The position numbers and the translations under genes are program-made. Below are positions 17,688 through 54,202 of a DNA stretch of 64,000 nucleotides, piece by piece (position 1 is the stretch's first letter; each line of letters starts with the position of its first letter). The notes under the pieces are model-generated. The model saw nothing but the letters and a program-made list of their open reading frames with translations. It was not told the origin of the DNA and did no database searches. This DNA comes from Bacteroidetes bacterium GWA2_40_15 (GTDB taxonomy: Bacteria > Bacteroidota > Bacteroidia > Bacteroidales > VadinHA17), in the NCBI GenBank assembly GCA_001768195.1, contig MENI01000097.1, positions 4,908-68,907 of the forward strand, read 5' to 3'.

Positions 17688-19115
17688 CTAAAGTCTTTCT
17701 ATTACAAAGATGTCGTGCCTGTCGAGATTCAGCCAGTATTTGATAGAGTTCTTCCTGACCAGTTCCCAGTAAATGTCACTGTCGAGGCCATAGACAAAGT
17801 TTATCTCCTTTAGTTCATTGCTTATGAGCGATGCAATTTCAGGTTTAAGGGTCAGCCTTATTTTTCGGTTCATATAAATGAATTCGGCTGAAGGTAATGC
17901 AGGCGATTCATGCTTAACAGTAAGCAGACCGTGGCCCGGTGTTGCTCCGGTACTTACCTGGAGACCATCATTCATGCAGCTCATTGGAGGTTCGGAGCCT
18001 GCTGATGAGGTGACCATAAATTCATCCACCCCTGTATTGAAATATTCTCTGGCCCTGATCCCCATTTTAACACCTATTATGGCAAAAACACCAAGATGCC
18101 TGTGTAACTCATTTGCGATCACTCCTGACACCCATTCATCCAAACCGTATTTGTTGATTATATCCGTTACAGATGGTTCAATATCTGCGAAATAGAATGA
18201 AGGAGTCAGCGGAAATTCCTTTATAACCTGATTTCTTTCAACCGTTTCCCCTTTAAGTATCCGCAGAGTCTTTTCCCTGATCAGGCCTATGTCGGCAGGC
18301 GATGCAACAATGCCTTTCGCTGTTGTTTCGGCATTGAATAATTGAGGGTAATGCATGTAAACTGGTATCGCATCATCAGTCATTCCAAATGAAAAATTGT
18401 GGTTCTTTGCCTTTTCTGATGTAAAAAATTCTGTTAATCTCTTTGCATACGCAGAATGTACAAATGAGATATTGTTGTTTAGGTCAGCGTCATATAATTT
18501 CATGTCGCCTGTTCCTTTTACTACGGTTACCTGGATGCCACTTCCGAAAATTTTACTGACAGCCTGAGCATCAATCTTATAGTTAAAGCCCTTTTTGTCA
18601 TTCAGCCCGTCAGCGCTCCATATGATCCCTTTTACCTTTTGCCTGAACTGAGGGATCTCCGCATAAGCAGAAGCTGCAGTTGAGAGGCTTCCGAGGCATA
18701 CCATACTGATTTTATTATTCTCTGTGCTCAGTATTTCGCGTATAACACCAATACATTCAGGGGCTATATCTCCTGATAATTGATTTTCCTCTCCCCATAC
18801 ATAGTTCAATGCCAATGGGAGATCAGGCGATCTGAATTTACATGAAGTGTTTATCCCTACAGGTATGCCCTCGTGGTAAAATCCATTCAGAAGGCTTTTT
18901 ACTTTTACCCAGGCGGCCTTTGCATTCAGCGCTCCGGGTGAAACGGTTATTGCAAGCACCCTGATGTCGGGCGAGGCAAGCAGCATCGAAATTGCTTTCA
19001 TGTCATCTACTCCTGCATCAGTGTCAACTATGATATAATGCCGGGGCTTCCACGGATGTGAAAAAGCAGTAACAGCAAAACCAAACGTCAGCAGCAGAAT
19101 AAATATCCTTTTCAT
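17688..19115 (-). CDS. secreted fusion protein: inosine-uridine nucleoside hydrolase-like N-domain plus FmdE-like C-domain
   Basis: The ATG at 19115 (the track TTG is at 19124) gives signal peptide MKRIFILLLTFGFAVTAFS. The IUNH signature is IIVDTDAGVDDMKAI. The C-terminal ~150 aa (HRHLGVFAIIGVKMGIRA..SCMNDGLQVSTGATPGHGLL) follow the FmdE-domain pattern. Confidence 0.6.
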   Translation of the reverse strand: MKRIFILLLTFGFAVTAFSHPWKPRHYIIVDTDAGVDDMKAISMLLASPDIRVLAITVSPGALNAKAAWVKVKSLLNGFYHEGIPVGINTSCKFRSPDLPLALNYVWGEENQLSGDIAPECIGVIREILSTENNKISMVCLGSLSTAASAYAEIPQFRQKVKGIIWSADGLNDKKGFNYKIDAQAVSKIFGSGIQVTVVKGTGDMKLYDADLNNNISFVHSAYAKRLTEFFTSEKAKNHNFSFGMTDDAIPVYMHYPQLFNAETTAKGIVASPADIGLIREKTLRILKGETVERNQVIKEFPLTPSFYFADIEPSVTDIINKYGLDEWVSGVIANELHRHLGVFAIIGVKMGIRAREYFNTGVDEFMVTSSAGSEPPMSCMNDGLQVSTGATPGHGLLTVKHESPALPSAEFIYMNRKIRLTLKPEIASLISNELKEINFVYGLDSDIYWELVRKNSIKYWLNLDRHDIFVIERL

Positions 19116-19133
19116 AAGTGACAAATTTCTTAT

Positions 19134-19851: not shown

Positions 19852-22122
19852 ATGGATAACACGCTGATGAAATACAATCTGATTTTTGCATTATTCTTGA
19901 TGACCCTCTTGCTCACCGCCTGTACAAAGCAACCTGCGAAGATGGACGGGCGCGGCAAACCTGGATTTCGCGTTCGTTCCGACTTTGCTGCGACGTTAAA
20001 CTCTGAAGTAGGATGGGCTGGTGCACTGAATGAGAATGTTCCCATTTACGCAGACCAACCTTTCCGCATTCGATTTGAATTGGAGCGCCCTGCAGGACCA
20101 ACTAGTGGTCGGCAATTCCGGCTTCAGTACAGACTAAATAGCGGAGTCTGGACCAATGTCGAGGCACACGACTTCCCCCACCCGGAACGCTATATTAGTA
20201 TGAATTTTAAACAACTTGAGGCCGGCACGCAACCTGAGGGATGGACTGTTGTGAAGGGCAATTCCTCAGAATTGGTCGTAGTGACCGATAACCATCAGAA
20301 CGCTCTACGAGCCAAATCGGATAAAGAGCCGCTTGTATGGCTCTTCACCCCACCTTGGGAGGCTACAGAAATTGCATCTCAATTCCGATTGGCCCCTGAA
20401 AATCACCGCGGGATCGCGTTCGTTGTGGGCTATGCCGATATCAGTAACTACTGTCTCGTACAGCTCGAGCCTACACCTGGCACGATACGTGTGAGCCATA
20501 TTATTGATGGGATAGAAAGGATTCTCGTCGAGAGAACCACCGTTATTACTACTGGCCAATGGCTCGAAATCGAAATTGAAACCGAAAACCGCAGGATTGA
20601 AATTAATTTCCAGAATGATATGCTGGAAATGGATGTCAAGCTTGATACTGATATCCCGCACTCAAAACTTGGATTTCAGGTTCCGTCGAATAGTACAATC
20701 GATTTTCGGAAATTCTCCTTCAATGGAGAAGCCAAAACCCCGCGAATCAGTATAGTTACCTGCCCAGCCTACGAGCACGGCATGTCAACCAACGATCTGT
20801 TGAAAGGTTCGGCCGCACCATTCCAGGCTGGCACTGGTATTAGTTTCGTCGAATTTACGCCTGTATGGAGCGGCGCGAATGTTCATGGCGAGTTCGAATG
20901 GCCGGTGGTCATTCGCCGGTTTGCTGATGGGGCAGTGACCAACAATGAAGGTGATACATTCGAATTTAGGATGATCGACACTGAAGGAACCGCACTGGGA
21001 AATGAACATAATCCAGCACTCCGCCTGTCCATCCCGCTCGGCCATGTTGGCGGGACATTCGTAGAAACCCCTGGCCGGATCGGCCCTTGGCAGGCCTCCA
21101 ACGGAAATCTTTACTTCATCATGGAACCGACAGAGACGGATAATATGTTCATGATGATAAAGTCCACGGACAACGGACGTACCTGGTACGAAATGGATGG
21201 AGCAAACCGCCCCAGGACAAATGACCTCGAATCGGTTGACTCGCGACTATTGGATAACACGATTCATATTATTCACCAAGTGACCCAATCTGTGCGTTAT
21301 CATACTTTCCGTACGTCTGATCATCCAACCCACCCTGATACCTGGGCTATCCGGGACGAGTTGGCTGGATCCGTGAACGCCATCGCCCAGAATGCGTCGA
21401 TGGTAGTGCGCTCAGACGGAAGCATAGTCGCGTTTTATCTTGGTACAGAAAAAATACATTACAGTATACGCTCGCCCGAAGGCACATGGAGCCAGGTAAA
21501 AACACTTGATCTCGACCTTCAACCCAACCAGGCTGGGCCACAAGCAGTGCTCGGTGCAAACGACATTATTCATCTCGCCTATTATGGAACCGATGGCACC
21601 ATCTGGTATCGACGGTTTCTTCCCGATGGTACCTTCACGTCAAGGCAACAGGTAGCGACAGGTGCCGGGACTTCAAGGGCGGAATATGGCGCAGTGCTTC
21701 CACTTCTCTTTATTCCCCACAAGAATGAGGTCGTCATTATTTATCGGCTCTTAAGCGGGAACCTTTGGGAACGACGGATTGTAAATGATGCCCCGCCTAC
21801 GGATGCAGTCATGGTAACCGATCTAAGGGTGGTCACCGACGCCGTCGACTCACATCAAGCCGGTGCCGATGCTGCCATCGACGGCGAGACAGTGTATGCG
21901 ATTTTCATTGCTGAGTCTTCCCGAAGCATCCTCAGCACGCACGACAATGGTGGATGGCAACCTCCGAAGCTCCGGGTCGACAACATACTTGGATCGTGGG
22001 TCCGTGGAAACGTATACACCCGCAAAGATGGCATGAGAGTATATGGATACATCTATGATGCGGGCTCCGATGGCGGTACAGGCATGAATCGATTCAGTGA
22101 GCTTGTATTGAACGGCAGATGA
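19852..22122 (+). CDS. lipoprotein with ConA/LamG-like (DUF1080-like) middle region and BNR/Asp-box beta-propeller-like C-terminal half
   Basis: 756 aa with lipobox LLLTAC. Canonical Asp-box STDNGRTW at nt 21163-21186. The middle string GWTVVKGN..ALRAK..GIAFVVGY is jelly-roll-like. G+C and CG-dinucleotide content are visibly higher than in the flanks. Confidence 0.55.
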   Translation: MDNTLMKYNLIFALFLMTLLLTACTKQPAKMDGRGKPGFRVRSDFAATLNSEVGWAGALNENVPIYADQPFRIRFELERPAGPTSGRQFRLQYRLNSGVWTNVEAHDFPHPERYISMNFKQLEAGTQPEGWTVVKGNSSELVVVTDNHQNALRAKSDKEPLVWLFTPPWEATEIASQFRLAPENHRGIAFVVGYADISNYCLVQLEPTPGTIRVSHIIDGIERILVERTTVITTGQWLEIEIETENRRIEINFQNDMLEMDVKLDTDIPHSKLGFQVPSNSTIDFRKFSFNGEAKTPRISIVTCPAYEHGMSTNDLLKGSAAPFQAGTGISFVEFTPVWSGANVHGEFEWPVVIRRFADGAVTNNEGDTFEFRMIDTEGTALGNEHNPALRLSIPLGHVGGTFVETPGRIGPWQASNGNLYFIMEPTETDNMFMMIKSTDNGRTWYEMDGANRPRTNDLESVDSRLLDNTIHIIHQVTQSVRYHTFRTSDHPTHPDTWAIRDELAGSVNAIAQNASMVVRSDGSIVAFYLGTEKIHYSIRSPEGTWSQVKTLDLDLQPNQAGPQAVLGANDIIHLAYYGTDGTIWYRRFLPDGTFTSRQQVATGAGTSRAEYGAVLPLLFIPHKNEVVIIYRLLSGNLWERRIVNDAPPTDAVMVTDLRVVTDAVDSHQAGADAAIDGETVYAIFIAESSRSILSTHDNGGWQPPKLRVDNILGSWVRGNVYTRKDGMRVYGYIYDAGSDGGTGMNRFSELVLNGR

Positions 22123-22742: not shown

Positions 22743-24269
22743 ATGAAGAGATTTCTCTTATGGTTTTTACCGGGACTGATTGTAGGCGTTTTGCTGATAC
22801 TTGGTGGGGGTAAGGCAATAGATACAACTTCATCAAATGACTTTTGCATGTCGTGCCATATTCACCCCCTGGCCGATGCAGCCTGGAAGAAGTCAGTTCA
22901 TTATGATACGAAGTCAGGATCGCGGATCGGATGTGTTGAGTGCCATCTTCCTCCTAAAGGCGATAATTATTTATGGGCAAAAGCTACTACAGGATTAAGG
23001 GATCTTTGGAGCTATTGGACCAAGGACTCTGCATCGTTTAACTGGGAAGAGCGCGGAAGACTTGAAATTGCCAGGGGGCATGTTTTTGAGAGCAGCTGTA
23101 CTAAATGTCATGTGAACCTTTTCCCTGCGAAGCTTACAAAGGAAGGGGAGAATGCACATCTCTATTATACCCAGACAAAAAAGACCGATGAGCTTCACTG
23201 TATAAATTGTCATCTGAATGCAGGGCATCATATTGAAGGGTATACCCATGGAAGCAATGCAACTTTCGGAGCTACTTCTGCTGCGCCAAAAGAGATCTTT
23301 ACCGTACCTGCAGAAGTATCAGAATTCATAAATTACACCGAGAAGATACCCGGCTCTTCAGTTGCTTTCAATATGGTGGCTGTTCCGGGAGGTAAATTCA
23401 GAATTGGCAGTCCTGATGATGAACCATTCAGGAAGCCTGACGAAGGACCGAAACGTGAGGTGGAGATCAGCCCTTTCTTTATGGCCGAAATTGAAGTCAC
23501 CTGGGATGAATATCTTGCATTCTATGTACAGACTGCTGCAGAAGGTCGAACGACTGATACTGAGGGAACAAGAAAAATAAAGTCTGATAAGACCGATGCA
23601 ATTTCCGGAGCAACTCCTCCCTACGGACAACCCGATCAGGGATGGGGAATGGGAAGACGCCCTGCTATATCCTTCTCTTATCATGCCGCAGAAACATATT
23701 GTAAATGGCTTAGTTCCGTTTCCGGGAAAACTTACCGTCTGCCTACTGAAGCGGAATGGGAATATGCCTGCAGGGCAGGTTCTGATGGCCCATATTTCTT
23801 CCCCGGAGATCCAAATAAATTTCAAAAGACAGGACTGAAGGCTAAGCTCTCCAAAAACGATACTGCAGTTATAAATACATACGTTGTATATAAAGCAAAC
23901 AGCTTATCCAAGACGCAACCACCCGACAGAGCAAAACCCAATCCTTTCGGCCTGAGAAACATGCCGGGAAATGTTGCCGAATTCTGCTCAGACTGGTATC
24001 AGCCCGATGCCTATTCACTATATCCTGATGGGGTTGTGAAGGATCCGAAAGGACCTGATAGCGGTGATGAACATGTTGTAAGAGGGGGTTCATTCCAGAG
24101 CACTGCAGATGTTCTGAGAAGTGCGGCCCGCGATTATACCCGTACAGAAGCATGGCTGAAAACCGACCCTCAGATGCCAAAGAGCATCTGGTGGTACTCC
24201 GACTGTTTCAATGTTGGTTTCAGGGTAGTATGCGAGTTTGATGAGAAAACAGGAAATGTTTCACCATGA
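22743..24269 (+). CDS. membrane-anchored NapC/NirT-type tetrahaem cytochrome c fused to an FGE/SUMF1 (formylglycine-generating-enzyme-like) domain
   Basis: N-terminal TM helix. Four CxxCH motifs (CMSCH, CVECH, CTKCH, CINCH) within the first ~170 aa. The C-terminal ~300 aa carry FGE-sulfatase patterns (MVAVPGGKFRIGS, YRLPTEAEWEYACRAG, GNVAEFCSDWY, RGGSF). Confidence 0.8.
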   Translation: MKRFLLWFLPGLIVGVLLILGGGKAIDTTSSNDFCMSCHIHPLADAAWKKSVHYDTKSGSRIGCVECHLPPKGDNYLWAKATTGLRDLWSYWTKDSASFNWEERGRLEIARGHVFESSCTKCHVNLFPAKLTKEGENAHLYYTQTKKTDELHCINCHLNAGHHIEGYTHGSNATFGATSAAPKEIFTVPAEVSEFINYTEKIPGSSVAFNMVAVPGGKFRIGSPDDEPFRKPDEGPKREVEISPFFMAEIEVTWDEYLAFYVQTAAEGRTTDTEGTRKIKSDKTDAISGATPPYGQPDQGWGMGRRPAISFSYHAAETYCKWLSSVSGKTYRLPTEAEWEYACRAGSDGPYFFPGDPNKFQKTGLKAKLSKNDTAVINTYVVYKANSLSKTQPPDRAKPNPFGLRNMPGNVAEFCSDWYQPDAYSLYPDGVVKDPKGPDSGDEHVVRGGSFQSTADVLRSAARDYTRTEAWLKTDPQMPKSIWWYSDCFNVGFRVVCEFDEKTGNVSP

Positions 24270-24397: not shown

Positions 24398-25744
24398 ATG
24401 AAAAAATTCAGCATTTCAAGACGTAATTTTCTTGGTAAAGCAGCAACAGCAGGTGTAGCAGGTATTGTGGTTCCATCAATCATTGCAGGCTGTTCACGCG
24501 AAAGTAAAAAGGTCGTTGCTGTTCCGACAATGCTTGACCAGGCTCCTGACGGGCCGGTGTTAAAAGCAGGTGTGATAGGTTGCGGCGGACGTGGAACCGG
24601 CGCTGCTATTAACTTTCTGAGTGCCGGCCCGAGTCTGCAGGTTACTGCATTGGCCGACACATTCCAGGATCGGGTTGATTCCTGCCGGGAAGCTATAAAG
24701 AAAGAAAAGGGACAGGATGTTCCCATTGAAAATTGCTTTGTTGGTTTCGATGCTTACCAGAAAGTAATTGATTCAGGAGTTGATATTGTAATTCTTGCCA
24801 CTCCTCCATATTTTCGTCCTGAGCACCTTGCTGCCTGCGTCCAGGCCAAGAAGCATATCTTTGCTGAAAAACCTGTTTGTGTTGATCCTGTTGGCGCAAG
24901 GTCAGTCATGGCAACTGCCCAGAAAGCAAAAGGACTTGAACTGAGCATTGCAACAGGTACCCAGAGGAGGCATCAGCGCGACTATGTTGCTACTTGGCAG
25001 CAGGTTGCACAGGGACTCATCGGGGATATCGTTGGAGGAACAGTATACTGGAATGGCGGCAAGCTATGGCATCGCGATCCAAACCCGAAATGGAGCGAAA
25101 TGGAATACATGATACGTAACTGGGTGAACTGGACCTGGCTTTCCGGCGATCACATTGTGGAACAGCATGTTCATAACCTCGATGTACTGAACTGGTTTAC
25201 AGGGTCACACCCGGTTAAAGCTGTTGGTTTCGGATCAAGGCTCAGAAGGGTGACAGGTGATCAGTATGATAATTTCAGTATAGACTATACCTTTGAAAAT
25301 GGAATTCATGCTCACAGCATGTGCAGGCAGATAAACGGCTGTGTCAACAACGTATCCGAAAGATTACAGGGAGCAAAAGGCTCCACAAACTGCAGGAACG
25401 TGGTTCTCGACTTAACCGGAAATGAACTCTGGAAGTACGGGTATCCGCTTGATAAAGACAGCAAACCAACCAACAATGTAAGCGTTGATCCTTATGTTCA
25501 GGAACATATCAACCTGGTTACCGCCATTCGCAGCGGTCAGGCATTCAACGAACTGGAAAACACCGCCATCTCAACTATGGTTGGCATTATGGGACGCATA
25601 TCGGCCTATACAGGCAAGGAGACAACTTACGAAGAGATGATGAACTCCGACCTTAAGCTTGGGCCTGAAGTATTTGATTTTGGACCTGTTAACATCCCTA
25701 AGGAAGTACCGGTCGCCGGTCTTCCATACGTTCCCGGGCAGTAA
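24398..25744 (+). CDS. Tat-exported Gfo/Idh/MocA-family oxidoreductase (probable lipoprotein)
   Basis: Twin-arginine leader SRRNFLGKAATAGVAG followed by IIAGCS. Rossmann motif VIGCGGRGTG and the EKP motif (FAEKPV). Confidence 0.8.
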   Translation: MKKFSISRRNFLGKAATAGVAGIVVPSIIAGCSRESKKVVAVPTMLDQAPDGPVLKAGVIGCGGRGTGAAINFLSAGPSLQVTALADTFQDRVDSCREAIKKEKGQDVPIENCFVGFDAYQKVIDSGVDIVILATPPYFRPEHLAACVQAKKHIFAEKPVCVDPVGARSVMATAQKAKGLELSIATGTQRRHQRDYVATWQQVAQGLIGDIVGGTVYWNGGKLWHRDPNPKWSEMEYMIRNWVNWTWLSGDHIVEQHVHNLDVLNWFTGSHPVKAVGFGSRLRRVTGDQYDNFSIDYTFENGIHAHSMCRQINGCVNNVSERLQGAKGSTNCRNVVLDLTGNELWKYGYPLDKDSKPTNNVSVDPYVQEHINLVTAIRSGQAFNELENTAISTMVGIMGRISAYTGKETTYEEMMNSDLKLGPEVFDFGPVNIPKEVPVAGLPYVPGQ

Positions 25745-25786: not shown

Positions 25787-26737
25787 ATGATAGATTCAAG
25801 AAGGAATTTCATAAAAAGAGCCACATTAGCAGGAGCCGCCATTTTGGCTGCTCCTGCAGTTTTTGGATCCCAGGACGGGAAGAAGAAAACCAAAGCAAAA
25901 ACCCCCGATGCGGTTACACCATTCAAACTGAAGTATGCACCTTCAGTAGGGATGTTCCGCGAACATGCAGGCAATGATATTATCGATAATATCAAATTCT
26001 GTAATGACATGGGTTTCAGAGCCATGTTCGATAACGGGCTTATGGGTCGTTCTCCTGAAGACCAGGTAAAGTATCTGAGTGAGCTGCAGCGGTTAGGGAT
26101 GGACTTTGGGCCATTCGTCCTTTACGCCGATTTTTCAGTTACCTCATTTGTACTTAACAAGCCTGAGACACGTGAAATGCTCATCAATAAGATGAAAGAG
26201 GGTGTTGAGGTTTCAAAAAGGACCGGGGCAAAGCAGGCTCTTGTTGTTCCCGGAAGATATGATGAAAAGCTTGACCGCGATTTTCAGACTGCTAACGTGA
26301 TCGATAACCTGAGGTACTGTTGTGATATCGTTGAACCGGCAGGACTGACAATTGTACTGGAACCTCTCAATACCCTGAGGGATCATCCGGGTCTGTTCCT
26401 TACAGGAGTGCCGCAGACTTATTCAATTTGCAGGGCAGTGAACCGCCCCTCATGCAAAATAAACCTGGATTTATATCATCAGCAGATAACAGAGGGAAAT
26501 CTGATTCCGAACCTGGATGCTGCATGGAGCGAGATAGGAGCATTGCATTGTGGCGATAATCCTGGCAGGATGGAGCCAACAACCGGAGAGATAAACTATA
26601 AGAATGTTTTTAAGTTTATCTATCAGAAAGGCTACCAGGGAGTTATATGTATGGAGCACGGCATGAAAAACAGGACAAAGGAGGGAGAGGCAAGAGTTAT
26701 AGAGGCTTACCGTGAATGCGATAGTTTCGAAGTGTAA
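25787..26737 (+). CDS. Tat-signal xylose-isomerase-like TIM-barrel protein (sugar phosphate isomerase/epimerase family)
   Basis: Leader SRRNFIKRATLAGAAILAAPAVFG. The body resembles the hydroxypyruvate isomerase/AP_endonuc_2 fold (VLEPLN.., DLYHQQ). Confidence 0.7.
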   Translation: MIDSRRNFIKRATLAGAAILAAPAVFGSQDGKKKTKAKTPDAVTPFKLKYAPSVGMFREHAGNDIIDNIKFCNDMGFRAMFDNGLMGRSPEDQVKYLSELQRLGMDFGPFVLYADFSVTSFVLNKPETREMLINKMKEGVEVSKRTGAKQALVVPGRYDEKLDRDFQTANVIDNLRYCCDIVEPAGLTIVLEPLNTLRDHPGLFLTGVPQTYSICRAVNRPSCKINLDLYHQQITEGNLIPNLDAAWSEIGALHCGDNPGRMEPTTGEINYKNVFKFIYQKGYQGVICMEHGMKNRTKEGEARVIEAYRECDSFEV

Positions 26738-26758: not shown

Positions 26759-27877
26759 ATGAAAAAGATTTTATATTTCGGACTGGTGCTGTTATTAGCA
26801 GTCTTGTTTTCAGATGCTGCCAATTGCCAGCTTTCCCGGCTCTATGTCGGAAAATATGCTAAGGAAGGCGAAAAAGGGCTTCACATAATTGATGTTGATC
26901 TTTCGAAGGGGACCTTTACCACAGTTTCAGAGTCGGATGCAGGTACAAATCCATCTTACTTTTGTATCTCAAAGAAAAGAAGCCTCATTTATGCTGTAAA
27001 TGAAGTCGGCAGGATAAAAGATGTGCGGGCGGGAAGCGTTTCTACTCTCCGCTTCGATGCAAAAAACGGGAAAACTGAAAAACTGAATGAAATTTCAGTT
27101 CCTAACGGAGGACCATGCTATATCTCTTTATCTGCTGATGAAGGCTTCCTCCTGGTAGCCAATTACGGAGGTGGTTCTGTAGCAGTTGTAAGGCTTGATG
27201 CAAACGGAATCCCCTTTGAAGTGAGCGATACAATAATATATAAAGGAGAGGAGGGCACTCGCTCCCGTGGCCATATGATAGCTCCCGGTTTAGGTGGGAA
27301 GAAGATATATGTGACTGACCTCGGCCTCGACAGGGTTGCAGTATATGACCTTGATCCAGTTTCAGGAAAGCTGAAGCTTATAAATAATGGATATGCAAAG
27401 CTTGCAAAAGGAGCAGGCCCGCGTCATTTTGCTTTCGGGAAAGACGGCACCAGAATGTATGTAATTAATGAGCTTAATTCAACCATGACTGTTTTTAATG
27501 TCGGTAACTCAGGGGAACTGAATGAAATACAGACACTTTCCACTCTCCCTGAAGGCTTCTCAGGAAAGAATTTCTGTGCCGATGTCCATGTAGCCGGGAA
27601 TGGTAAATATGTTTATGGTTCAAACAGAGGTCATAACTCTATCGTGACATATAAGGTCGGACCTGAAGGGAAACTCACTCTTGTTGGTCACACTTCATGC
27701 GGAGGAGACTGGCCGCGTAATTTTGTTCTCGATCCTTCAGGAAAATACCTTATAGCCGGAAATCAAAACTCCGGAAATATTTCACTTTTCAGCCTTGATA
27801 AAAAAACAGGACTTCCTCAGCTTCCATCAAAGGATTTTAAGATAGAATCCCCTTCATGCCTGAAGTTTATTGAGTAA
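26759..27877 (+). CDS. secreted 7-bladed beta-propeller lactonase (6-phosphogluconolactonase/YbhE-like family)
   Basis: Signal peptide, then repeated motifs NPSYF.., VANYGGGSVAV, GAGPRHFAF and GSNRGHNSI typical of Pfam Lactonase. Confidence 0.75.
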   Translation: MKKILYFGLVLLLAVLFSDAANCQLSRLYVGKYAKEGEKGLHIIDVDLSKGTFTTVSESDAGTNPSYFCISKKRSLIYAVNEVGRIKDVRAGSVSTLRFDAKNGKTEKLNEISVPNGGPCYISLSADEGFLLVANYGGGSVAVVRLDANGIPFEVSDTIIYKGEEGTRSRGHMIAPGLGGKKIYVTDLGLDRVAVYDLDPVSGKLKLINNGYAKLAKGAGPRHFAFGKDGTRMYVINELNSTMTVFNVGNSGELNEIQTLSTLPEGFSGKNFCADVHVAGNGKYVYGSNRGHNSIVTYKVGPEGKLTLVGHTSCGGDWPRNFVLDPSGKYLIAGNQNSGNISLFSLDKKTGLPQLPSKDFKIESPSCLKFIE

Positions 27878-27923: not shown

Positions 27924-30407
27924 ATGCAATCAAGATGCTGTATATCAGTTATATTGTTGCTTTTGATAAGTTTTTCATCTTTTGCACAGGAGATAACCCA
28001 TTCCCGTGATGAAAAGGCAGTTGTTATTGCCGACAAATCAGGTAACCTTCAGATAGAAATTGATTACAGTAAAGGCTGCAGGATCAGCAGACTGATAGTT
28101 AAAGGGAGGAATACTCTTTCTGCTTCAGGAGCCTTTACTTCGGTAAAAACAGCGGATAATTTATATACCTCGCCTGAGTCATCTGCCCGGGCAAAGGTTG
28201 TGAAACGTAAAAACGGCCTTACAATACGCAATATTATCTTCGGAGATGAAGAGATGACTGTTTCAGAGACCTGGGAATTCGCAATTGCCGGCAGCACTAT
28301 TGAATGGAAGATAAACAGGCAGTACAGAAATCGCGGGACACTCGATGATATGGCCATGCCTGCCTGGCACTTTGAAAAACTCAACACATGGAAGGCAGGT
28401 ATCCTGAACACAGGTGGCGTGGTATGGTGTAAATATTTTGAGAATCTGAATGACACATATGGAGTACATACCAACGGAGTAACATTCTGGGAAACTGAAT
28501 CAGGCAATGGATTAAGGATTGAAGCAGATTCTCAGACAGGAGGTCACATTGCCTGCTCATTCAGCCATGCTCAGGATGAAGAGTTTAAACTCACTCAGTA
28601 TCTTACAACTGATGAACTGGGGCAACGTTACAACCTGAGCAGGTTCGTAAGTAAAAAGAAGGACGTATTTGCTCCCTTCAATGTGGATATGGGTGTTGCA
28701 TCGGTTATACTTAATATCAGCTATGTAGACTATGATAAGGAGTATGACAGGGGAACTCTGCCCGGAATAGATGAAGTGGCGGTCAGGGAACTTTTAAACA
28801 CTACAGGACGATATGGCGTAGTTGACAGAAACATTACAGGAGGCAACGGATGGGTAACCAACTGGAAGTGCCTGCATGAACCATTCTTTGCACAAACAGG
28901 AATGGCAATAAATGATAAAAACTATCTTAGAAATCTCGCTTCAACACTCGATCAGGAACGGGACCAGGCAATTGAAGCCGATGGCAGGGTGCTGGCACGA
29001 TGGCACGACATTCCTGAAGCTCAGAAGAGCAATTACAATTTCAAAACAGGCTACTACGACTGCCCCTGGGGATACACTATTGATGCCCAGCCCTCGCAGG
29101 TGATAAATACAGTTGAGCTGTTTCATCAGACAGGTGACCTGAACTGGCTCAGATCACATAAGGAGAATTGTGAAAAGGTTCTGAACTGGCTTATTAAAAG
29201 AGATTCCAACAATAACGGGATCTTTGAAATGCTTAATGATAATACCGGAGAAAACAAATGCAGCGACTGGATAGATGTTGTATGGGCAAGCTTCGAGAAC
29301 GCTTTTGTTAATGCACAGATGTATGAGGCGCTGAATCTTTGGTCCGGGTGCGAATCTATCCTGGGAGATACGGGTAAAGCAGCCTACTATTCAAGGATCG
29401 CCGACAGGTTGAAAGTGGCTTTCAATAAACCTGTGCAATACGGAGGGTTCTGGTACCCTGAAAAAAGGCAATATATCTACTGGAGGGATAAGGATGGATC
29501 GCTGCATGGTGATAACCTGGTAACTCCTGTAAATTTTGCAGCCATAGCTTTTGGGCTTTGTGAAGATCCCGTACGAATAAAGGAGATACTTGACCAGATC
29601 GAGGAAAAGACTTCTGCCGAGAAGCTGTTTCACTGGCCCCTTTGCTTTGAATCATTCAGGGAAGAGGAGGTCTACAAGCCTGTAAACTGGCCGTTTCCAA
29701 ACTATGAGAATGGGGATATTTTTCCAACATGGGGTTATCTCGGTGTGCGATCGTATGTGAAATACGATAAAACTATTGCTCTAAAATATATTAAGAATCT
29801 TCTGCAACAGTATAATAAGGACGGGCTTTCCTCGCAGCGTTTCAGCAGGACTACTCAGCAAGGAAAGGGTTCTGATATTCTTGCCGGTTCAAGCACAACA
29901 ATTGCTGCTCTGTACAGGGATATTTATGGAATAAGGCCTAAATGGAACAGGTTCGGTATTGAACCCAATATGCTAAAAGAGCTTAATGGAACGGAATTCA
30001 GTTATACATTTACCGGAAAGAAATATAATGTCAGACTGAATGAGGATAAATATGAACTCTCCAATGACGATTTCACTATTACTGCCGGGCAGAGCTTTGG
30101 AGTCAGTACTGATGGAAATAACCTGCTATATTACCCGGGGAATAAAGATATTGCCCGGTTGTCAGTAACCAAAAGTATTATTGACCCGGTTAAAGTAGAT
30201 ATAGCACAGTGGGATGAAGGGATAATGGAGTGGTCGATTCTGTCGCCAGGGATCTTCAGGTTCATTGTATCGGGTCTTAAGCCAGGCAGCCAGTACAGGC
30301 TGAAGACAGGAGCTGATGAAGAGAAGCTTGTAATTTCCGGTTCAGATGGCAATCTTAATTTTGAATATACATGTCAGGATATGGTAAAATTCACTCTGAT
30401 CAGGTAG
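27924..30407 (+). CDS. secreted 827-aa protein with an (alpha/alpha)6-barrel glycoside-hydrolase-like C-terminal half
   Basis: Signal peptide. The central and C-terminal strings SDWIDVVWASFENAFVNAQMYEALNLW and TPVNFAAIAFG resemble GDE_C/GH63/GH78-type six-hairpin enzymes. The family is not resolved by eye. Confidence 0.45.
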   Translation: MQSRCCISVILLLLISFSSFAQEITHSRDEKAVVIADKSGNLQIEIDYSKGCRISRLIVKGRNTLSASGAFTSVKTADNLYTSPESSARAKVVKRKNGLTIRNIIFGDEEMTVSETWEFAIAGSTIEWKINRQYRNRGTLDDMAMPAWHFEKLNTWKAGILNTGGVVWCKYFENLNDTYGVHTNGVTFWETESGNGLRIEADSQTGGHIACSFSHAQDEEFKLTQYLTTDELGQRYNLSRFVSKKKDVFAPFNVDMGVASVILNISYVDYDKEYDRGTLPGIDEVAVRELLNTTGRYGVVDRNITGGNGWVTNWKCLHEPFFAQTGMAINDKNYLRNLASTLDQERDQAIEADGRVLARWHDIPEAQKSNYNFKTGYYDCPWGYTIDAQPSQVINTVELFHQTGDLNWLRSHKENCEKVLNWLIKRDSNNNGIFEMLNDNTGENKCSDWIDVVWASFENAFVNAQMYEALNLWSGCESILGDTGKAAYYSRIADRLKVAFNKPVQYGGFWYPEKRQYIYWRDKDGSLHGDNLVTPVNFAAIAFGLCEDPVRIKEILDQIEEKTSAEKLFHWPLCFESFREEEVYKPVNWPFPNYENGDIFPTWGYLGVRSYVKYDKTIALKYIKNLLQQYNKDGLSSQRFSRTTQQGKGSDILAGSSTTIAALYRDIYGIRPKWNRFGIEPNMLKELNGTEFSYTFTGKKYNVRLNEDKYELSNDDFTITAGQSFGVSTDGNNLLYYPGNKDIARLSVTKSIIDPVKVDIAQWDEGIMEWSILSPGIFRFIVSGLKPGSQYRLKTGADEEKLVISGSDGNLNFEYTCQDMVKFTLIR

Positions 30408-30440: not shown

Positions 30441-31703
30441 ATGCAACTTATCAACATCAGTCTTTCAGGAATAGTAAGGGTAAAGAGAAAATTTGTGCTT
30501 GCTTTGTTCCTGCTTTTCATTATAGTCTTGCCTGTTATAACCGGCTTCAGCCCTGGGAAAAGGAAACCGTATAAAAACTATGTGCTTCTCGTTTCCCTTG
30601 ATGCTTTCAGGTGGGACTATCCTGATTTGTACAACACTCCCAACCTTGACATACTGGGAAACGACGGAGTCAGAGCGGAAAGGATGATCTCCTCTTTTCC
30701 CACAAATACATTTCCAAATCATTATTCCATAGCAACAGGCCTCTATCCGGACCATCACGGACTAATAAGCAACAGTTTCCCGGCTCCCGACCTTGGGCTG
30801 TTTTACCGGATAGGCGACAGGGAAGCAGTTGAGAATCCGGACTTCTACGGAGGAGAACCAATGTGGGTTACTGCTGAAAAGCAGGGCGTTAAAGCTGCTT
30901 CATTCTTCTGGGTAGGATCGGAAGCACCTGTCGGAGGAATGCATCCGACATACTGGAAGAAGTATGACGAATCAGTGGGTTATGGTGAGAGGATAGATAC
31001 TATTGTAAAATGGCTCGGTTATCCTGAGCAGAACAGGCCTGAACTTTTAACTCTCTACCTTGATGAACCTGATGCAACCAGCCATGATTTCGGTCCTGTT
31101 TCAGCGGAAACCGGGGAAGTTGTGATGAGACTTGACAGTCTGATCGGAGCGTTGCGGAACAAACTTAGTTCTCTGCCTTACGGCGACAGAATAAACCTGA
31201 TAGTGATATCTGATCATGGTATGGCTTCGGTATCGCCTGAAAAGTATATTAACCTGAAATCGCTTGTTCCCGACAGAATGATTGCATCTATATCAGGAGG
31301 TAATCCTGTATATCTGATAAATCCTGCAGAAGGGAAAGCCGACAGTTTACTTCTTCTTATAAACAGAGCATCGGGTGTAAGAGCCTGGAGGAAATCAGAA
31401 CTTCCTTCAAAATGGCACTATGGTACCCATCCAAGGATCCCTGAGATTGTTGTTGTTGCCGACAGCTCGTGGAGCATCGGAACCCGGCCTTCTGCATTCT
31501 CAAACAAAGGTGCTCATGGTTACGATAATTATAATCCCGATCTCTTTTCGATTTTTTATGCAGCAGGTCCTTCATTTAAAAAGAATTACAGTTTCAGCGA
31601 GCTTAAGAATACAGATGTTTACAACCTTGTCTGTCGTATCCTCAATATTAAGCCCGCCGCTAATGATGGCAACCGAAAAAATATCAGGAAGTTGCTCAGA
31701 TAA
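30441..31703 (+). CDS. ectonucleotide pyrophosphatase/phosphodiesterase (NPP, alkaline-phosphatase superfamily), membrane-anchored
   Basis: LVSLDAFRWDY, FPTNTFPNHYSIATGLYPDHHGL and ISDHGM motifs. Confidence 0.8.
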   Translation: MQLINISLSGIVRVKRKFVLALFLLFIIVLPVITGFSPGKRKPYKNYVLLVSLDAFRWDYPDLYNTPNLDILGNDGVRAERMISSFPTNTFPNHYSIATGLYPDHHGLISNSFPAPDLGLFYRIGDREAVENPDFYGGEPMWVTAEKQGVKAASFFWVGSEAPVGGMHPTYWKKYDESVGYGERIDTIVKWLGYPEQNRPELLTLYLDEPDATSHDFGPVSAETGEVVMRLDSLIGALRNKLSSLPYGDRINLIVISDHGMASVSPEKYINLKSLVPDRMIASISGGNPVYLINPAEGKADSLLLLINRASGVRAWRKSELPSKWHYGTHPRIPEIVVVADSSWSIGTRPSAFSNKGAHGYDNYNPDLFSIFYAAGPSFKKNYSFSELKNTDVYNLVCRILNIKPAANDGNRKNIRKLLR

Positions 31704-35964: not shown

Positions 35965-37338
35965 CTATTGCGCGATATCAAGCAACTCCAGGAAGCTTTT
36001 TTCGGATATTGTATGGTCAGCAATCAGGTTTAGGTAGTTGTTGTTTGAACGGAATGCAATACCTTTTCCACTCTCCCTGATAAGACATATGTCATTTTCA
36101 CTGTCGCCTATCGAAATTATCTTCTCAAGTCCAATAGTATATTGTTCTGCAAGCTGAAGCAGAACATTTGATTTACAGAAGTCGTGGTTACATTTGCTTT
36201 TTCCGGTTCTTAAAAAGGATGACGGTACCTTTACCTCTCCTGTGGCGATGCTTCTGGAGAACTCAAGTTCATTTCCAATTGAAAAATCCATACCAAGCTT
36301 GTTCTTAATGTGATTTGTGACCACATCATAGCTGTCGCTGATTATTCCGCAAATATACCCCCTGCTTTTAAGTTCGGAAATGACAAATTCTGCATCCCTG
36401 ATTATGGGGATGCTGTCAGTTACATTAAGGATTTCATCTATTGACTTTCCCTTAAGCAGTTTAGCTATACCTTTGGTCCTCAGGTAGGCATTGTCGGTTT
36501 CAGTAACAGTTTTTATAAGATCCTTCTTGAACCCGAATGCTTCAGCAGCAGTTGTAATAAAACTATCCTCCAGAAGTGTATTATCCATGTCGAATATTAT
36601 CATTTTTTCAAGGCCCCGGAGTCCTTCCCTGATTGCATAATCCATCTGCGTACGGATAATACTCATATTCTGAAGGGTTTCAAGGTTGTATCCTTCAATG
36701 CGTTTGGCTCTTTTAATAATAGAGAGTGAGACCTCCCGCGACATTTTGGCCAGGGCCTCCCAGCTCTGCATCCTGTTTTCAATATATCCGATATTCACTT
36801 CAGTGATCCTTGCACCCAGAATATTCATATCAATAAGAAGACCGATATCAACTCCATAATCATTCTCGAATTCTACCTTTTTAAGAAGGCTTTTCCTGGC
36901 TGCTATCATCCCGCTCAGAGGTTGTGAAAACCTTGTCAGATCAGGGAACAGGATGCTTAACAGCGGCTTTGCAACAAGCTCGGTAACCCTTCCGGCCTGC
37001 CTGTCGAAAGATGATTTGACCAGATCAGCCTCATCGTTTATTATCGGCGTGGCAAGCCTTTCCACAACATCATTGGGATATGTAAGTATATCGGCATCGA
37101 GAAAGACAATAACCTCATTCTTTGCAAGCAGCATACCGTCCCTCATTGAAGCACCTTTCCCCAGCTTTGTACTGGTATAGAGTTTTACAGCCGGCAATTT
37201 TGCAACTTTTAATGTATCATCAGAAGATTTGTCATCAATGACGAGGATCTCATTAACCAGGGAAGATTTTCCGACAAGTTCAATTACTTGTTTTACGGTT
37301 TTCTCTTCATTCAGTGTTGGGATGATCAATGTTACCAT
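35965..37338 (-). CDS. fusion protein: glucosyl-3-phosphoglycerate-synthase-like GT (GT2/GT81-like) plus HAD phosphatase (SerB-like)
   Basis: N-terminal half: IIPTLNEE.., VIDDKSSDDT, FLDADI, GRVTELVAKPLL and QPLSGMIAARK (GpgS/MpgS-like). C-terminal half: HAD motif I IFDMDNTL and motif IV GDSENDI. Confidence 0.65.
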   Translation of the reverse strand: MVTLIIPTLNEEKTVKQVIELVGKSSLVNEILVIDDKSSDDTLKVAKLPAVKLYTSTKLGKGASMRDGMLLAKNEVIVFLDADILTYPNDVVERLATPIINDEADLVKSSFDRQAGRVTELVAKPLLSILFPDLTRFSQPLSGMIAARKSLLKKVEFENDYGVDIGLLIDMNILGARITEVNIGYIENRMQSWEALAKMSREVSLSIIKRAKRIEGYNLETLQNMSIIRTQMDYAIREGLRGLEKMIIFDMDNTLLEDSFITTAAEAFGFKKDLIKTVTETDNAYLRTKGIAKLLKGKSIDEILNVTDSIPIIRDAEFVISELKSRGYICGIISDSYDVVTNHIKNKLGMDFSIGNELEFSRSIATGEVKVPSSFLRTGKSKCNHDFCKSNVLLQLAEQYTIGLEKIISIGDSENDICLIRESGKGIAFRSNNNYLNLIADHTISEKSFLELLDIAQ

Positions 37339-37550: not shown

Positions 37551-39965
37551 ATGACTGCAGGGAATTATATTAAAGCAAAACTGAATAAGCATATTCCGGC
37601 TATAGGCTGGTTGCATGAGTATTCACCGGGAATCCTTGGCAAAGATGCAGTTGCAGGAGTTACTCTTGCTGCCTATGCAATACCTGTATCGCTGGCTTAT
37701 GCAACTCTGGCAGGATTGCCTCCGCAGTACGGGGTGTATGGTTATCTTATCGGAGGCTTGTTTTATGCAATGCTCGGCACCGGAAAACAGCTTGCTGTCG
37801 GACCCACATCTGCAATATCAATGCTTATCGGAGTAACGCTAGCCGGATTTGCTGAAGGTGATGTTCAGCGATGGATTGATCTGGCATCATTGTCAGCACT
37901 GTTGTTAGCGGTAATGAGCGTTATGGCATACTTCCTCCGGTTAAGCAGTATAATTAATTTTATAAGCGAAACTGTTCTGGTAGGATTTAAAGCCGGTGCA
38001 GCAATATTGATCGGACTTACACAGTTACCCAAACTTTTTGGTGTGGCAGGTGGCGGTGAATCATTTTTTGGCCGTCTGGCAGCCCTGATAACTCAATTGC
38101 CTGATACCAACCTGGTTGTTCTGATATTTGGCATTGCGGCAATTATTTTTATGATCGCCGGCAATAAGCTTCTGCCTGGCAAACCGGTAGCAATAATTGT
38201 GGTTGTGATATCTATTCTTATTATTTCATTTTCCCCGCTTGGTTCCATGGGTTTCAAAACTGTTGGGATAATTCCTGCAGGATTGCCTGATTTCCGTCTC
38301 CCTGATCTGAATTCAGATCATATCCTGGATGATATTATGAATATTCTTCCTCTGGCATTTGCATCTTTCCTGCTTGCCTACATCGAAAGTGTATCCGCAG
38401 CAAAAACACTGGCTCAGAAAAACGGGTATGAAATCGATCCGGGACAGGAGCTTCTATCCCTTGGTGTGGCAAACCTTGCAACATCACTGGGTCAGGGTTA
38501 TCCGGTAAGCGGAGGTTTATCGCAATCTGCTGTCAATGAAAAAGCTGGTGCCAAAACACCAATTTCACTTGTCATTGCATCTGTTACAATAGGAATTTGT
38601 CTTTTATTTCTGACCGGCTTACTGAAAAACCTCCCATCTGTTGTACTGGCTGCAATTGTTATTGTTGCTATTAAGGGACTGGTGGACATCAAAGAGATGA
38701 AGCGGATGTACAGGGTCAACCGGTTTGATTTTATTATTGCAATGATAGCGCTTGTGGCTGTAATTGTATTTGGTATTCTTAAGGGAGTACTCATTGCTGC
38801 CTTGTTTTCTCTGATTCTTATAATCAGGGCTGTATCGGGCCCTCATATTGCTTTTCTTGGAAGGATACCAGGTACTAACAGGTACACCGATATAAAGAGG
38901 CATCCTGATAATGAACTGATACCCGGAATCCTTTTATTCAGGGTAGAAGCCAGTTTGTTTTATTTCAATACGGCATTTATTTACAGGACAGTCTGGGCAA
39001 AAATAAAGGAATCAAATGACTCGCTTAAGACTGTTATTTTCGATTTAAGCACTTCAGCGTATATTGATTCCAGCGGTGCCAGGCTTATAAAAAGGTTACA
39101 TGAAAATCTGTCGGCCCGTGGAATTGACTTAAAGGTATCAGAGGCTCATTCAGGAGTACGTGACCGGCTGAGACTTGAAGAGATTGAGCACCTGCTGGGG
39201 CATGTCAGCCGACGTGATACATTACACGACATGATTGTTACTGCAATCGGAGAGGTTGAGCCCGATATCAAAAAAGCCCCGGTCAAGCCTGCCAAGCTGC
39301 TTCCTCCGGAGATAATTACACAAATTATACTGGGGAATAATTATTTCACACAGACACATCCAAAGGAGTATTTCGAGAGCTTTAGCTATGAGCAGAAACC
39401 CTATATAACCCTGGTAACATGTTGTGATTCCAGAGTCCCTCTAAATTCCCTGCTGCCCGATACATCGAACAGGGTATTCGCGATAAAGAATATCGGTAAC
39501 CAGATACTTTCAACAGAAGGATCTGTTGACTACGGAATATATCATCTGAAAACACCAATTTTATTTTTCCTGGGGCATTCCGATTGCGGGGCAATAAGGG
39601 CATTCCTGAAAGGGTTTGAAGATGAGTCATATAATATAAAACATGAACTTGATTTTCTTAAGCCTTCCATAATAGAACAGGATATACAGGATTTTGAAAA
39701 GCTCCAGTCAATTATTATTGAGAAGAACCTCGATTACCAGGTGAATATTGCCTGCAAAAAGTACAGGGAGCAGATTCAGTCGGGCGATCTTATTGTAATG
39801 GCAGGGACCTACGATTTCAAAGGAGAATATGGAAAGGGAATGGGTGATATAGTAATAGTGAATGTCAATAAGATCAAAGATGTTGAGCAGCTTCACAACA
39901 TGTCATTATTCGAGTATCTTTCGAAAGCCCAGAAAGAGTTGCACATCGGCAGGCTGCCGGTATAA
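37551..39965 (+). CDS. SulP-family anion transporter with STAS domain fused to a beta-carbonic anhydrase domain
   Basis: 804 aa. SulP N-terminus (AGVTLAAYAIPVSLAYATLAGLPPQYG), a STAS region (~aa 460-560) and C-terminal beta-CA motifs CCDSRVP and GHSDCGA. Confidence 0.8.
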   Translation: MTAGNYIKAKLNKHIPAIGWLHEYSPGILGKDAVAGVTLAAYAIPVSLAYATLAGLPPQYGVYGYLIGGLFYAMLGTGKQLAVGPTSAISMLIGVTLAGFAEGDVQRWIDLASLSALLLAVMSVMAYFLRLSSIINFISETVLVGFKAGAAILIGLTQLPKLFGVAGGGESFFGRLAALITQLPDTNLVVLIFGIAAIIFMIAGNKLLPGKPVAIIVVVISILIISFSPLGSMGFKTVGIIPAGLPDFRLPDLNSDHILDDIMNILPLAFASFLLAYIESVSAAKTLAQKNGYEIDPGQELLSLGVANLATSLGQGYPVSGGLSQSAVNEKAGAKTPISLVIASVTIGICLLFLTGLLKNLPSVVLAAIVIVAIKGLVDIKEMKRMYRVNRFDFIIAMIALVAVIVFGILKGVLIAALFSLILIIRAVSGPHIAFLGRIPGTNRYTDIKRHPDNELIPGILLFRVEASLFYFNTAFIYRTVWAKIKESNDSLKTVIFDLSTSAYIDSSGARLIKRLHENLSARGIDLKVSEAHSGVRDRLRLEEIEHLLGHVSRRDTLHDMIVTAIGEVEPDIKKAPVKPAKLLPPEIITQIILGNNYFTQTHPKEYFESFSYEQKPYITLVTCCDSRVPLNSLLPDTSNRVFAIKNIGNQILSTEGSVDYGIYHLKTPILFFLGHSDCGAIRAFLKGFEDESYNIKHELDFLKPSIIEQDIQDFEKLQSIIIEKNLDYQVNIACKKYREQIQSGDLIVMAGTYDFKGEYGKGMGDIVIVNVNKIKDVEQLHNMSLFEYLSKAQKELHIGRLPV

Positions 39966-48698: not shown

Positions 48699-48782
48699 AA
48701 CCGGACCGGTTTTAAAACCTGTCAGGCAGACCAATATACACTTTAAATCATTGAGATTCTTTTTAATTATATAACACATAGT

Positions 48783-50504: not shown

Positions 50505-50535
50505 AACTTTATTGAACAGAATAAATCCTGGAAAT

Positions 50536-51363: not shown

Positions 51364-51364
51364 A

Positions 51365-52678: not shown

Positions 52679-52692
52679 TTAAAAAATAAATT

Positions 52693-54174: not shown

Positions 54175-54202
54175 GTACATGCCATGGCATGTACCTACCT
54201 AT
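54167..54202. repeat. perfect 36-nt palindrome (ataggtaggtacatgcca|tggcatgtacctacctat) that supplies both convergent stop codons
   Basis: Base-by-base pairing checked around the centre at 54184/54185. The TAG at 54172-54174 (+ gene) and the TAG at 54195-54197 (- gene) are mirror positions. Confidence 0.8.

Follow-up and report, generated by a model that had tools for sequence, protein, structure and literature searches.

What would a tetrahaem cytochrome of the quinol-oxidising NapC/NirT family do with a domain that has the fold of formylglycine-generating enzyme (FGE)? The question is raised by a 64,000-nucleotide stretch of Bacteroidetes bacterium GWA2_40_15 (GenBank assembly GCA_001768195.1, contig MENI01000097.1, positions 4,908 to 68,907 of the forward strand), which we call the window. 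One of its genes, at 22743–24269 on the forward strand, is a single open reading frame (ORF) with an ATG start, and the ORF list, Pfam and a homologue search identify its 508-amino-acid (aa) product as a membrane-anchored fusion of these two parts. A preliminary description of the locus stated that no function had been characterised for such a fusion, and our full-text literature search agrees: it found no description of a NapC/NirT–FGE architecture, of its function or of a proven role for it.

We lean towards the answer that the fusion belongs to a two-protein sugar (glycoside/cyclitol) dehydrogenase of the periplasm, in which it serves as the membrane-anchored electron acceptor and reduces quinone, the other protein being a Gfo/Idh/MocA-family enzyme encoded directly downstream. 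The cytochrome would probably pass the electrons of this Gfo enzyme to the respiratory quinone pool, perhaps via a covalent flavin. The architecture, the logic of the topology, the gene linkage and the motif conservation form the basis of this answer; what goes beyond them, we infer.

Architecture and conservation of the fusion

The preliminary description had pictured one N-terminal transmembrane helix followed by four CxxCH motifs in NapC/NirT/NrfH spacing, and hydropathy, a motif scan and Pfam all bear this out. Amino acids ~4–22 (22752–22808, +) are the sole strongly hydrophobic segment of the protein; they contain the hydropathy maximum, coincide with a helix (aa 2–28) in an AlphaFold2 (AF2) model and align with the anchor of NrfH. 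K2 and R3 precede this segment, so the N-terminus is predicted to lie inside and the remainder of the protein in the periplasm. The four haem-c sites, located by motif scan and alignment, occupy aa 35–39, 64–68, 119–123 and 153–157 (22845–23213, +), and Cytochrom_NNT (NapC/NirT, PF03264) matches aa 6–164 with 88.3 bits (E = 6e-25, cut-off 24.1).

Among solved structures, the haem part comes closest to the menaquinol dehydrogenase NrfH (2j7a), with which the anchor, haems 1 and 2 and residues K80 and D87 align. It is the NrfH segment FKAIAGARD that aligns with K80 (invariant in the fusion family) and D87 (at least 90% conserved), which makes these residues a putative quinol site. In an alignment of 39 family members, reaching down to 45% identity, His41, His53, His139, His162, the eight haem cysteines and K80 are invariant or nearly so. 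The first haem motif reads CMSCHIH (aa 35–41, 22845–22865) and ends in the invariant His41, whereas NrfH has FCTSCHIM, with Met; the haem next to the quinone may therefore have other axial ligands than in NrfH.

The preliminary description allowed that the two halves might be separate genes joined by a sequencing frameshift. However, the fusion is in one frame in 80 species-level genome loci and 12 metagenome loci, and a single frame is kept in hundreds of independent assemblies, which rules out a frameshift or assembly artefact. The 80 related genomes are all from uncultured Bacteroidales and encode proteins 75–87% identical to that of the window. Both Pfam domains lie in one ~505-aa chain in 120/120 matches listed for the window protein (77–90% identity) and in 120/120 listed for a distant member (45–55% identity). 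A search of domain architectures, as the preliminary description proposed, finds the fusion in thousands of proteins from Bacteroidota, Ignavibacteriota, KSB1 and Verrucomicrobia. These proteins carry the database names “formylglycine-generating enzyme”, “SUMF1/EgtB/PvdO family nonheme iron enzyme” and “cytochrome c nitrite reductase small subunit”. Such names are misleading for the family, and with the catalytic residues missing, the FGE and SUMF1/EgtB/PvdO labels can hardly be correct.

A distinct sub-type of the FGE fold

The second half of the protein matches FGE-sulfatase (PF03781) at aa 210–465 (153 bits, E = 1e-44, cut-off 23.3), and the strings GGKFRIGS, RLPTEAEWEYACRAG and RGGSF, quoted in the preliminary description as signs of a full FGE-sulfatase-type domain, are all found in the translation. 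The domain spans aa ~196–500 (23328–24242, +; Pfam, alignment and Foldseek) and opens with a conserved YTEKIPG. Our AF2 model, built from the 39-sequence alignment, is of moderate quality (pLDDT 68, pTM 0.62); its C-terminal half matches structures of PvdO and of human and bacterial FGE with a Foldseek E of ~1e-16 and target-normalised TM-scores of 0.66–0.73. The domain shares this fold with FGE/SUMF1 and PvdO, along with the core motifs RLPTEAEWEYA and GNVxE(F/W).

The fold thus stands, but a functional FGE does not. FGE has two Cu-binding cysteines after RGGS (RGGSxxCxxxxC), whose conservation the preliminary description had put forward as a check; the site reads RGGSFQSTADVLRSAARD in the window protein, with both cysteines replaced. 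Alignments to FGE and PvdO end at RGGSF, and aa 415–488 are free of cysteine. Nor did we find a conserved sulfatase neighbour across 87 genome loci or 35 metagenome loci of the sub-type defined below, and the family is likewise without a conserved pyoverdine context. Judged by these residues, FGE function has been lost although the fold is complete. With neither the cysteine pair nor a sulfatase partner, a true FGE or sulfatase maturation factor is ruled out, and for the same reasons the redox-dependent maturation factor that the preliminary description offered as its second option is not supported. PvdO is the closest solved structure, with an NCBIfam score of 114 bits against a cut-off of 500; membership of the PvdO, GldK, EgtB, SenA, NrfH, NapC and TorC families was considered and set aside, all scores being far under the equivalog cut-offs.

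What the domain has in place of the FGE residues is a set of motifs of its own. Using an exhaustive search of 1.8 billion representatives and inspection of the matches, we defined a sub-type by three motifs that are not in FGE or PvdO: YTE(T/K)IPG preceding the domain, a loop with D-A-x-[S/T]-[G/R]-[A/P]-[T/S]-x-P, and DPQxP[K/Q]SxW[W/Y] close to the C-terminus. The 39-sequence alignment shows each of them as invariant or almost so (as YTExIPG, DAxSGATPP and DPQxPKSxWW), and the last corresponds in the window protein to DPQMPKSIWWYSD (aa 475–487; 24165–24203, +). The sub-type occurs fused to NapC/NirT cytochromes, fused to other cytochrome modules, joined to an N-terminal region of ~420 aa, and free-standing with a signal peptide (in Planctomycetes and others).

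In the FGE proteins of four metagenome loci (L117, L125, L130 and L136), some of them within very large proteins, the third motif takes the form DPN(L/R)P(K/R)SxWW. Neither a Gfo orthologue nor apbE is near these genes, and they seem to form a related branch with a separate function.

Linkage to a Gfo/Idh/MocA dehydrogenase

The gene that begins 128 bp past the fusion gene (24398–25744, +; translation and Pfam) encodes a 448-aa Gfo/Idh/MocA dehydrogenase with a twin-arginine motif (SRRNFL), a lipobox-like Cys and the motifs GCGGRG, AEKP and DHIVEQHVHN. It scores 54.7 bits against PF01408 and 34.7 bits against PF22725. With 23.6 bits against a cut-off of 750, it is not in the BT_2158 family of NCBIfam; among solved structures, it is closest to the C-glycoside 3-oxidase DgpA, inositol dehydrogenases, a sugar 3-ketoreductase and a glucuronide 3-dehydrogenase.

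Among the 80 related genomes, the fusion gene is followed by a Gfo–TIM-barrel–lactonase run in 38, by SusC/SusD in 24 and by uninformative sequence in 18, so from these alone a link between the fusion and the oxidoreductase cluster is only suggestive. The downstream side in these loci (L001–L080) is a recombination hot spot, with occasional insertions of MFS transporter, sialidase-like or isochorismatase-family genes. The upstream side is well kept (PLD, esterase, MBL, class-I fumarase and nucleoside hydrolase–FmdE genes). This upstream synteny is restricted to close relatives and absent in distant lineages; we therefore set it aside as phylogenetic inertia.

Distant carriers are more telling. 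We examined six: Melioribacteraceae, Ignavibacteriales, KSB1, Puteibacter caeruleilacunae, a contig covered over 65 kb that encodes the protein P0285 (recorded on a 5.2-Mb contig as well) and a Verrucomicrobia metagenome-assembled genome. In all six, a Gfo/Idh/MocA gene encoding 438–450 aa starts 13–69 bp after the fusion gene, and in five the neighbourhood also holds genes for AP_endonuc_2 TIM barrels and/or the 3-keto-disaccharide hydrolase DUF1080; at L086, the fusion–Gfo pair stands alone among unrelated genes. Over their full length, these Gfo proteins are 50–63% identical to that of the window, compared with ~25% for other Gfo paralogues in the same loci, so they are orthologues of the window partner; seven lineages have this orthologue downstream of the fusion gene. 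The RRxF twin-arginine motif, which directs export by twin-arginine translocation (TAT), is in all of them, and a TAT motif is in 29 of 32 Gfo orthologues overall. The same orthologue, at 40–45% identity, follows the free-standing planctomycete form of the sub-type in 3/3 long contigs.

Because its seeds were generic FGE motifs, a metagenome scan also recovered unrelated FGE proteins, and these served as a negative control. A Gfo orthologue adjoins the sub-type gene in 11/12 loci where it is fused to a cytochrome and in 21/23 where it is unfused, i.e., in 32/35 sub-type loci, and in 0/45 other FGE loci (40 generic and 5 DPN-variant; Fisher p = 3e-19). All three sub-type loci lacking it are contig ends. 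The pairing spans at least five phyla, fused and unfused forms, and rearranged gene orders. Because of this contrast and the pairing in distant lineages, we conclude that the conserved unit is the FGE sub-type plus one specific TAT-exported Gfo dehydrogenase, not the whole cluster. The preliminary description had proposed an electron conduit for the periplasmic oxidoreductase cluster that the fusion gene opens. As regards the oxidoreductase directly downstream, this is supported by the orthologous pairs in Ignavibacteriota, KSB1, Verrucomicrobia and Prolixibacteraceae and by those of the free-standing planctomycete form; as regards the cluster as a whole, conservation does not extend that far.

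Redox links of the FGE-like domain

The sub-type has been joined independently to several c-type cytochrome modules, of which the NapC/NirT tetrahaem type of the window is one. It is fused in locus L124 to two PSCyt1 “planctomycete cytochrome c” domains (E = 5e-26) and in L110 to one monohaem domain, and in L107 and L109 a haem-c (Tll0287-like) ORF lies directly upstream of the sub-type gene. The region L124:1658–9130 encodes a monohaem cytochrome, a 525-aa NapC/NirT-type multihaem membrane cytochrome, the 2xPSCyt1–FGE-subtype fusion and the Gfo orthologue; the first two lie just upstream of the fusion as separate genes, so that this one locus has an “unfused” form of the entire system.

The loop motif of the sub-type resembles a flavinylation site. 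ApbE attaches flavin mononucleotide (FMN) to the last residue of a minimal motif, D-x-x-[S/T]-G-A-[S/T] (PMC12052999; PMC8238504), and DAISGAT in the window protein (aa 285–291; 23595–23615, +) matches it exactly, which makes Thr291, in the stretch DAISGATPPYGQPDQGWGMGR, the predicted FMN site. By the predicted topology, DAISGAT would be extracytoplasmic, as it follows a single N-in transmembrane segment on the same side as the haem sites. By composition, the motif is expected 0.002 times per protein, and it is seen in 3/694 other ORF products of related loci. DAI[ST]GAT is present in 118/118 proteins of the window clade. Its last position is Thr or Ser in all the sub-type members inspected; the residue before it is Ala or Pro, and in planctomycete forms Arg often stands in for Gly.

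The gene for the FMN transferase itself, apbE, adjoins 11/23 unfused sub-type genes (a further three are on truncated contigs) in at least four gene orders, compared with 0/40 generic FGE loci (p = 2e-6). Where apbE is present, no product within ±6 kb other than the sub-type protein has even a relaxed form of the motif. The motif and this linkage make it probable that the FGE-like domain itself takes part in redox chemistry. Bacteroidota use a housekeeping ApbE for NQR and RNF, and fused forms with the canonical G-A-T may rely on it too. Deviant R-P-T forms tend to carry their own apbE, a correlation that is post-hoc and confounded by phylogeny.

Two other observations concern flavinylation near these genes. 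A ~629-aa ORF family, found in five loci (e.g., L009:4149–6044, −), has the strict D..[ST]GA[ST] in three of its five members and is the only other strict-motif family within the 80 genome loci; its proteins may be genuine ApbE substrates near the fusion gene in some genomes. On Gemmataceae-like contigs (L088:3752–6931, L089:4288–6900 and L090:4408–6904, all −), apbE is followed on the same strand by a conserved 393–397-aa protein and then, in L089 and L090, by a conserved 86-aa protein, where L088 has a generic 285-aa FGE-family gene. This unit diverges from the FGE-subtype/Gfo pair, and its 393-aa and 86-aa proteins, which have no Pfam family, signal peptide or flavinylation motif, do not obviously belong to the module.

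A proposed electron path

If the fusion and its Gfo partner work together as we favour, the path could run as follows. The Gfo enzyme would be exported by TAT in folded form with a tightly bound, non-exchangeable NAD(P), like the glucose–fructose oxidoreductase (GFOR) of Zymomonas, a precedent that PMC8121099 discusses for BT2158, and would oxidise a glycoside or cyclitol. Oxidation of the C3 type seems most likely because of the TIM-barrel and DUF1080 neighbours, which would then process the keto-product. Haems accept electrons one at a time, so the two-electron step has to be split into one-electron steps, and a flavin on Thr291 would fit this role. ApbE would attach FMN covalently to this residue on a flexible loop of the FGE-like domain (AF2 leaves the loop, aa 288–309, unstructured), and the FMN would re-oxidise the enzyme-bound NAD(P)H, acting as the “second substrate” of a ping-pong enzyme. 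From FMN, single electrons would travel along the four haems, probably with bis-His ligation, and reach menaquinone at K80/D87, the site that resembles that of NrfH. The oxidation of sugars in the periplasm would in this way be wired to the respiratory chain, with no second sugar needed as oxidant. The oxidant for TAT-exported Gfo-type glycoside 3-dehydrogenases in Bacteroidetes has not been identified (PMC8121099).

The flavin part of this proposal is held more tentatively than the conduit itself. We put it forward as a possibility, somewhat short of even, that the FGE fold is a new class of ApbE-flavinylated redox domain, whose tethered FMN would enter the Gfo active site and take the hydride from the permanently bound NAD(P)H, and that a hitherto unrecognised wire from NAD(P)H through FMN and haem c to quinone is widespread in Bacteroidota, Ignavibacteriota, Planctomycetota and other phyla.

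Weighing the alternatives

Several results count against the favoured answer. SusC/SusD replaces Gfo after the fusion gene in 24 of the 62 informative close relatives (~39%), and the two states are interspersed on the tree with at least 11 switches; operon linkage of fusion and Gfo is therefore not obligatory. Related Gfo pathways can reportedly be internally redox-neutral, according to work from 2024, so an external acceptor is not logically required. For the flavin, apbE is next to cytochrome-fused genes in 0/12 metagenome loci and in none of the 87 genome loci, and there is none within the 64-kb window. G-P-T or R-P-T replaces the Gly-Ala form in about half of the divergent fusions and in all planctomycete forms, the FGE fold has no known flavin site or precedent as a flavin carrier, and AF2 has low confidence at two of the sub-type motifs (aa 288–309 and 472–491).

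In a serious rival, the conduit role is the same but the FGE-like domain is a cofactor-free docking module that holds the Gfo lipoprotein to the haem domain, with DAISGAT as a structural loop. The loss of the FGE catalytic residues, the use of FGE folds as structural modules elsewhere (e.g., the GldK/PorK type among our PDB matches), the many members with non-canonical G-P-T or R-P-T and the want of apbE beside any fused gene all suit it. We nonetheless think it rather unlikely, since it leaves unexplained how a hydride donor (two-electron, bound NAD(P)H) would reduce one-electron haems, why apbE is linked to the unfused genes in so many gene orders, and why the Thr/Ser is conserved throughout the sub-type. 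A reversal of the current, from menaquinol through the FGE-like domain to a Gfo-catalysed reduction (e.g., of a keto-sugar), would be the classical direction for a quinol dehydrogenase; it agrees with NrfH as best solved relative of the haem domain, with the aligned K80/D87 and with the ketoreductases in the Gfo family (the sugar 3-ketoreductase among the PDB matches). However, the textbook midpoint potential of menaquinol is about -75 mV and that of NAD(P)+ is -320 mV, so menaquinol cannot reduce NAD(P)+ and is a poor reductant for keto-sugars. Because these standard potentials make the reverse strongly uphill, the direction from sugar to quinone is preferred. The TIM-barrel and DUF1080 3-keto-glycoside hydrolase neighbours also fit an oxidative 3-keto pathway (PMC8121099), and we regard the reversed direction as improbable.

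It is also conceivable, with a slightly lower probability, that the FGE-like domain is itself an oxidase, a maturation enzyme or a PvdO-like small-molecule dehydrogenase whose electrons the haems carry, Gfo being a mere pathway neighbour. PvdO, named dihydropyoverdine dehydrogenase in NCBIfam, is its closest relative there as well as among solved structures, and the window cluster does contain a phosphodiesterase/sulfatase-superfamily gene. That NPP-type gene (30441–31703; Pfam) is, however, in only 13/80 related loci and absent from distant ones, the Gfo orthologue is the only universally conserved neighbour, and both the missing Cu-binding cysteine pair and the PvdO score, so far under its cut-off, speak against such an enzyme. 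We give least credence of all to the reading that Gfo adjacency is inherited synteny without coupling and that the protein serves an unrelated periplasmic redox or sensing task. The better conservation of upstream genes (fumarase, nucleoside hydrolase) than of downstream ones in close relatives, and the exchange of Gfo for SusC/SusD, would agree with it. Inertia of this kind does not account for a pairing that holds across so many phyla, fused and unfused forms and gene orders, and that no control FGE locus shows.

Comparison with known systems

As an electron-accepting subunit, the fusion would combine features of several known systems. With NrfH, NapC, CymA and TorC it shares the single N-terminal transmembrane segment, the four CxxCH motifs in family spacing and a PF03264 score above cut-off, and with NrfH also the K/D residues after haem 2. 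TorC likewise has an extra C-terminal domain, which here is an FGE fold instead of a haem domain and would face the redox partner. The fusion does not reach the equivalogs of the family (NrfH 64.7/134, NapC/NirT 51.1/311 and TorC 66.7/478 bits against cut-off), it has CxxCHxH where NrfH has CxxCHxM at haem 1, and it is proposed to reduce quinone, whereas the NapC/NirT family oxidises quinol.

The known ApbE substrates (NqrC, RnfG, NosR, PplA, DUF2271 and DUF3570 proteins) have in common with the fusion the seven-residue motif with its terminal Thr, a periplasmic location and a tie to membrane cytochromes or quinone-linked modules, and apbE is near the unfused homologues. They differ in their carrier, which is an FMN-bind, DUF2271 or DUF3570 domain and not an FGE-like one, and many members of the sub-type have Pro for the Ala of the motif. 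A literature search for ApbE together with the FGE fold gave nine co-mentions, all unrelated, and FGE, sulfatase, Gfo and NapC-type proteins are unmentioned in two flavinylation surveys and a 2025 review (PMC8238504, PMC11334425, PMC12052999). The part of the 2021 survey supplement available to us has no PF03781 entry.

Zymomonas GFOR and the glycoside 3-dehydrogenase BT2158 of Bacteroides thetaiotaomicron are, like the partner, TAT-exported Gfo/Idh/MocA proteins, and the DUF1080 3-keto-glycoside hydrolases and TIM barrels of the BT2158-type context are also neighbours here (PMC8121099). A second sugar recycles GFOR and no oxidant is known for BT2158, whereas the partner has a cytochrome subunit of its own encoded next to it. 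LacABC and ThuAB, which are cytochrome-c-dependent periplasmic glycoside 3-dehydrogenases, and other membrane-bound sugar dehydrogenase complexes follow the same logic of a sugar dehydrogenase and a cytochrome feeding the respiratory chain (PMC8121099). The catalytic subunit there is of the FAD/GMC type, while the one here is of the Gfo family with an NAD(P) cofactor, and the present system has a quinone-reactive membrane cytochrome of the NapC/NirT type and an intermediate FGE-fold domain.

Other genes in the window

Beyond the fusion and Gfo genes, the cluster continues with a TAT-exported xylose-isomerase-like TIM barrel (AP_endonuc_2; 25787–26737, +; Pfam), which is a frequent third member of the module. 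Two accessory genes follow: a secreted 7-bladed beta-propeller lactonase (26759–27877, +; Pfam and neighbourhoods), kept in close relatives only, and an 827-aa secreted protein (27924–30407, +) with a weak six-hairpin (rhamnosidase-like) glycosidase match, found in only four related loci.

Directly upstream of the fusion gene is a 756-aa secreted-looking ORF (19852–22122, +) with a GC content of 0.507, compared with ~0.42 in its surroundings. Its sole match is a weak one to DUF1080/3-keto-disaccharide hydrolase, with no NCBIfam or PDB relative, and it is a lineage-specific insertion because it is missing from 80/80 related loci. Beyond it lies an inosine-uridine nucleoside hydrolase fused to FmdE (17688–19124, −); 49 related loci also have this gene upstream of the fusion gene and divergent from it. 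The 620-bp spacer upstream of the fusion gene had no match in an Rfam scan, and promoter and terminator scans gave nothing informative with a sigma-70 model, which is unsuited to a Bacteroidota genome.

Elsewhere in the window, there are further fusions, namely a SulP transporter–STAS–beta-carbonic anhydrase (37551–39965, +) and a GT2 glycosyltransferase–HAD phosphatase (35965–37338, −). A sugar-acid catabolic cluster at 46869–55478 contains genes for an altronate/galactarate dehydratase-like protein, an IlvD/Edd dehydratase, an FAA-hydrolase family protein, a GntP permease and an aldehyde dehydrogenase; the opposite strand encodes a KdgT permease and a LarA-like protein of the lactate racemase family.

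Implications

TAT-exported Gfo/Idh/MocA enzymes are very numerous in Bacteroidota, Planctomycetota and Verrucomicrobia, and PMC8121099 explicitly asks how their nicotinamide cofactor, being tightly bound, can be regenerated where there is no free NAD(P). If our reading is true, a dedicated partner drains the electrons of such a Gfo enzyme to the quinone pool, and periplasmic glycoside oxidation could conserve energy. ApbE substrates would also gain a new carrier fold. Since the family has cultured carriers, Puteibacter caeruleilacunae and Prolixibacteraceae bacterium JC049, the idea is directly testable. It would provide a starting point for assigning a function to the large set of proteins now labelled “formylglycine-generating enzyme” or “SUMF1/EgtB/PvdO family nonheme iron enzyme”, and if flavinylation and the hydride relay hold true, both an FGE-fold flavin carrier and this way of recycling periplasmic nicotinoproteins would be new in kind.

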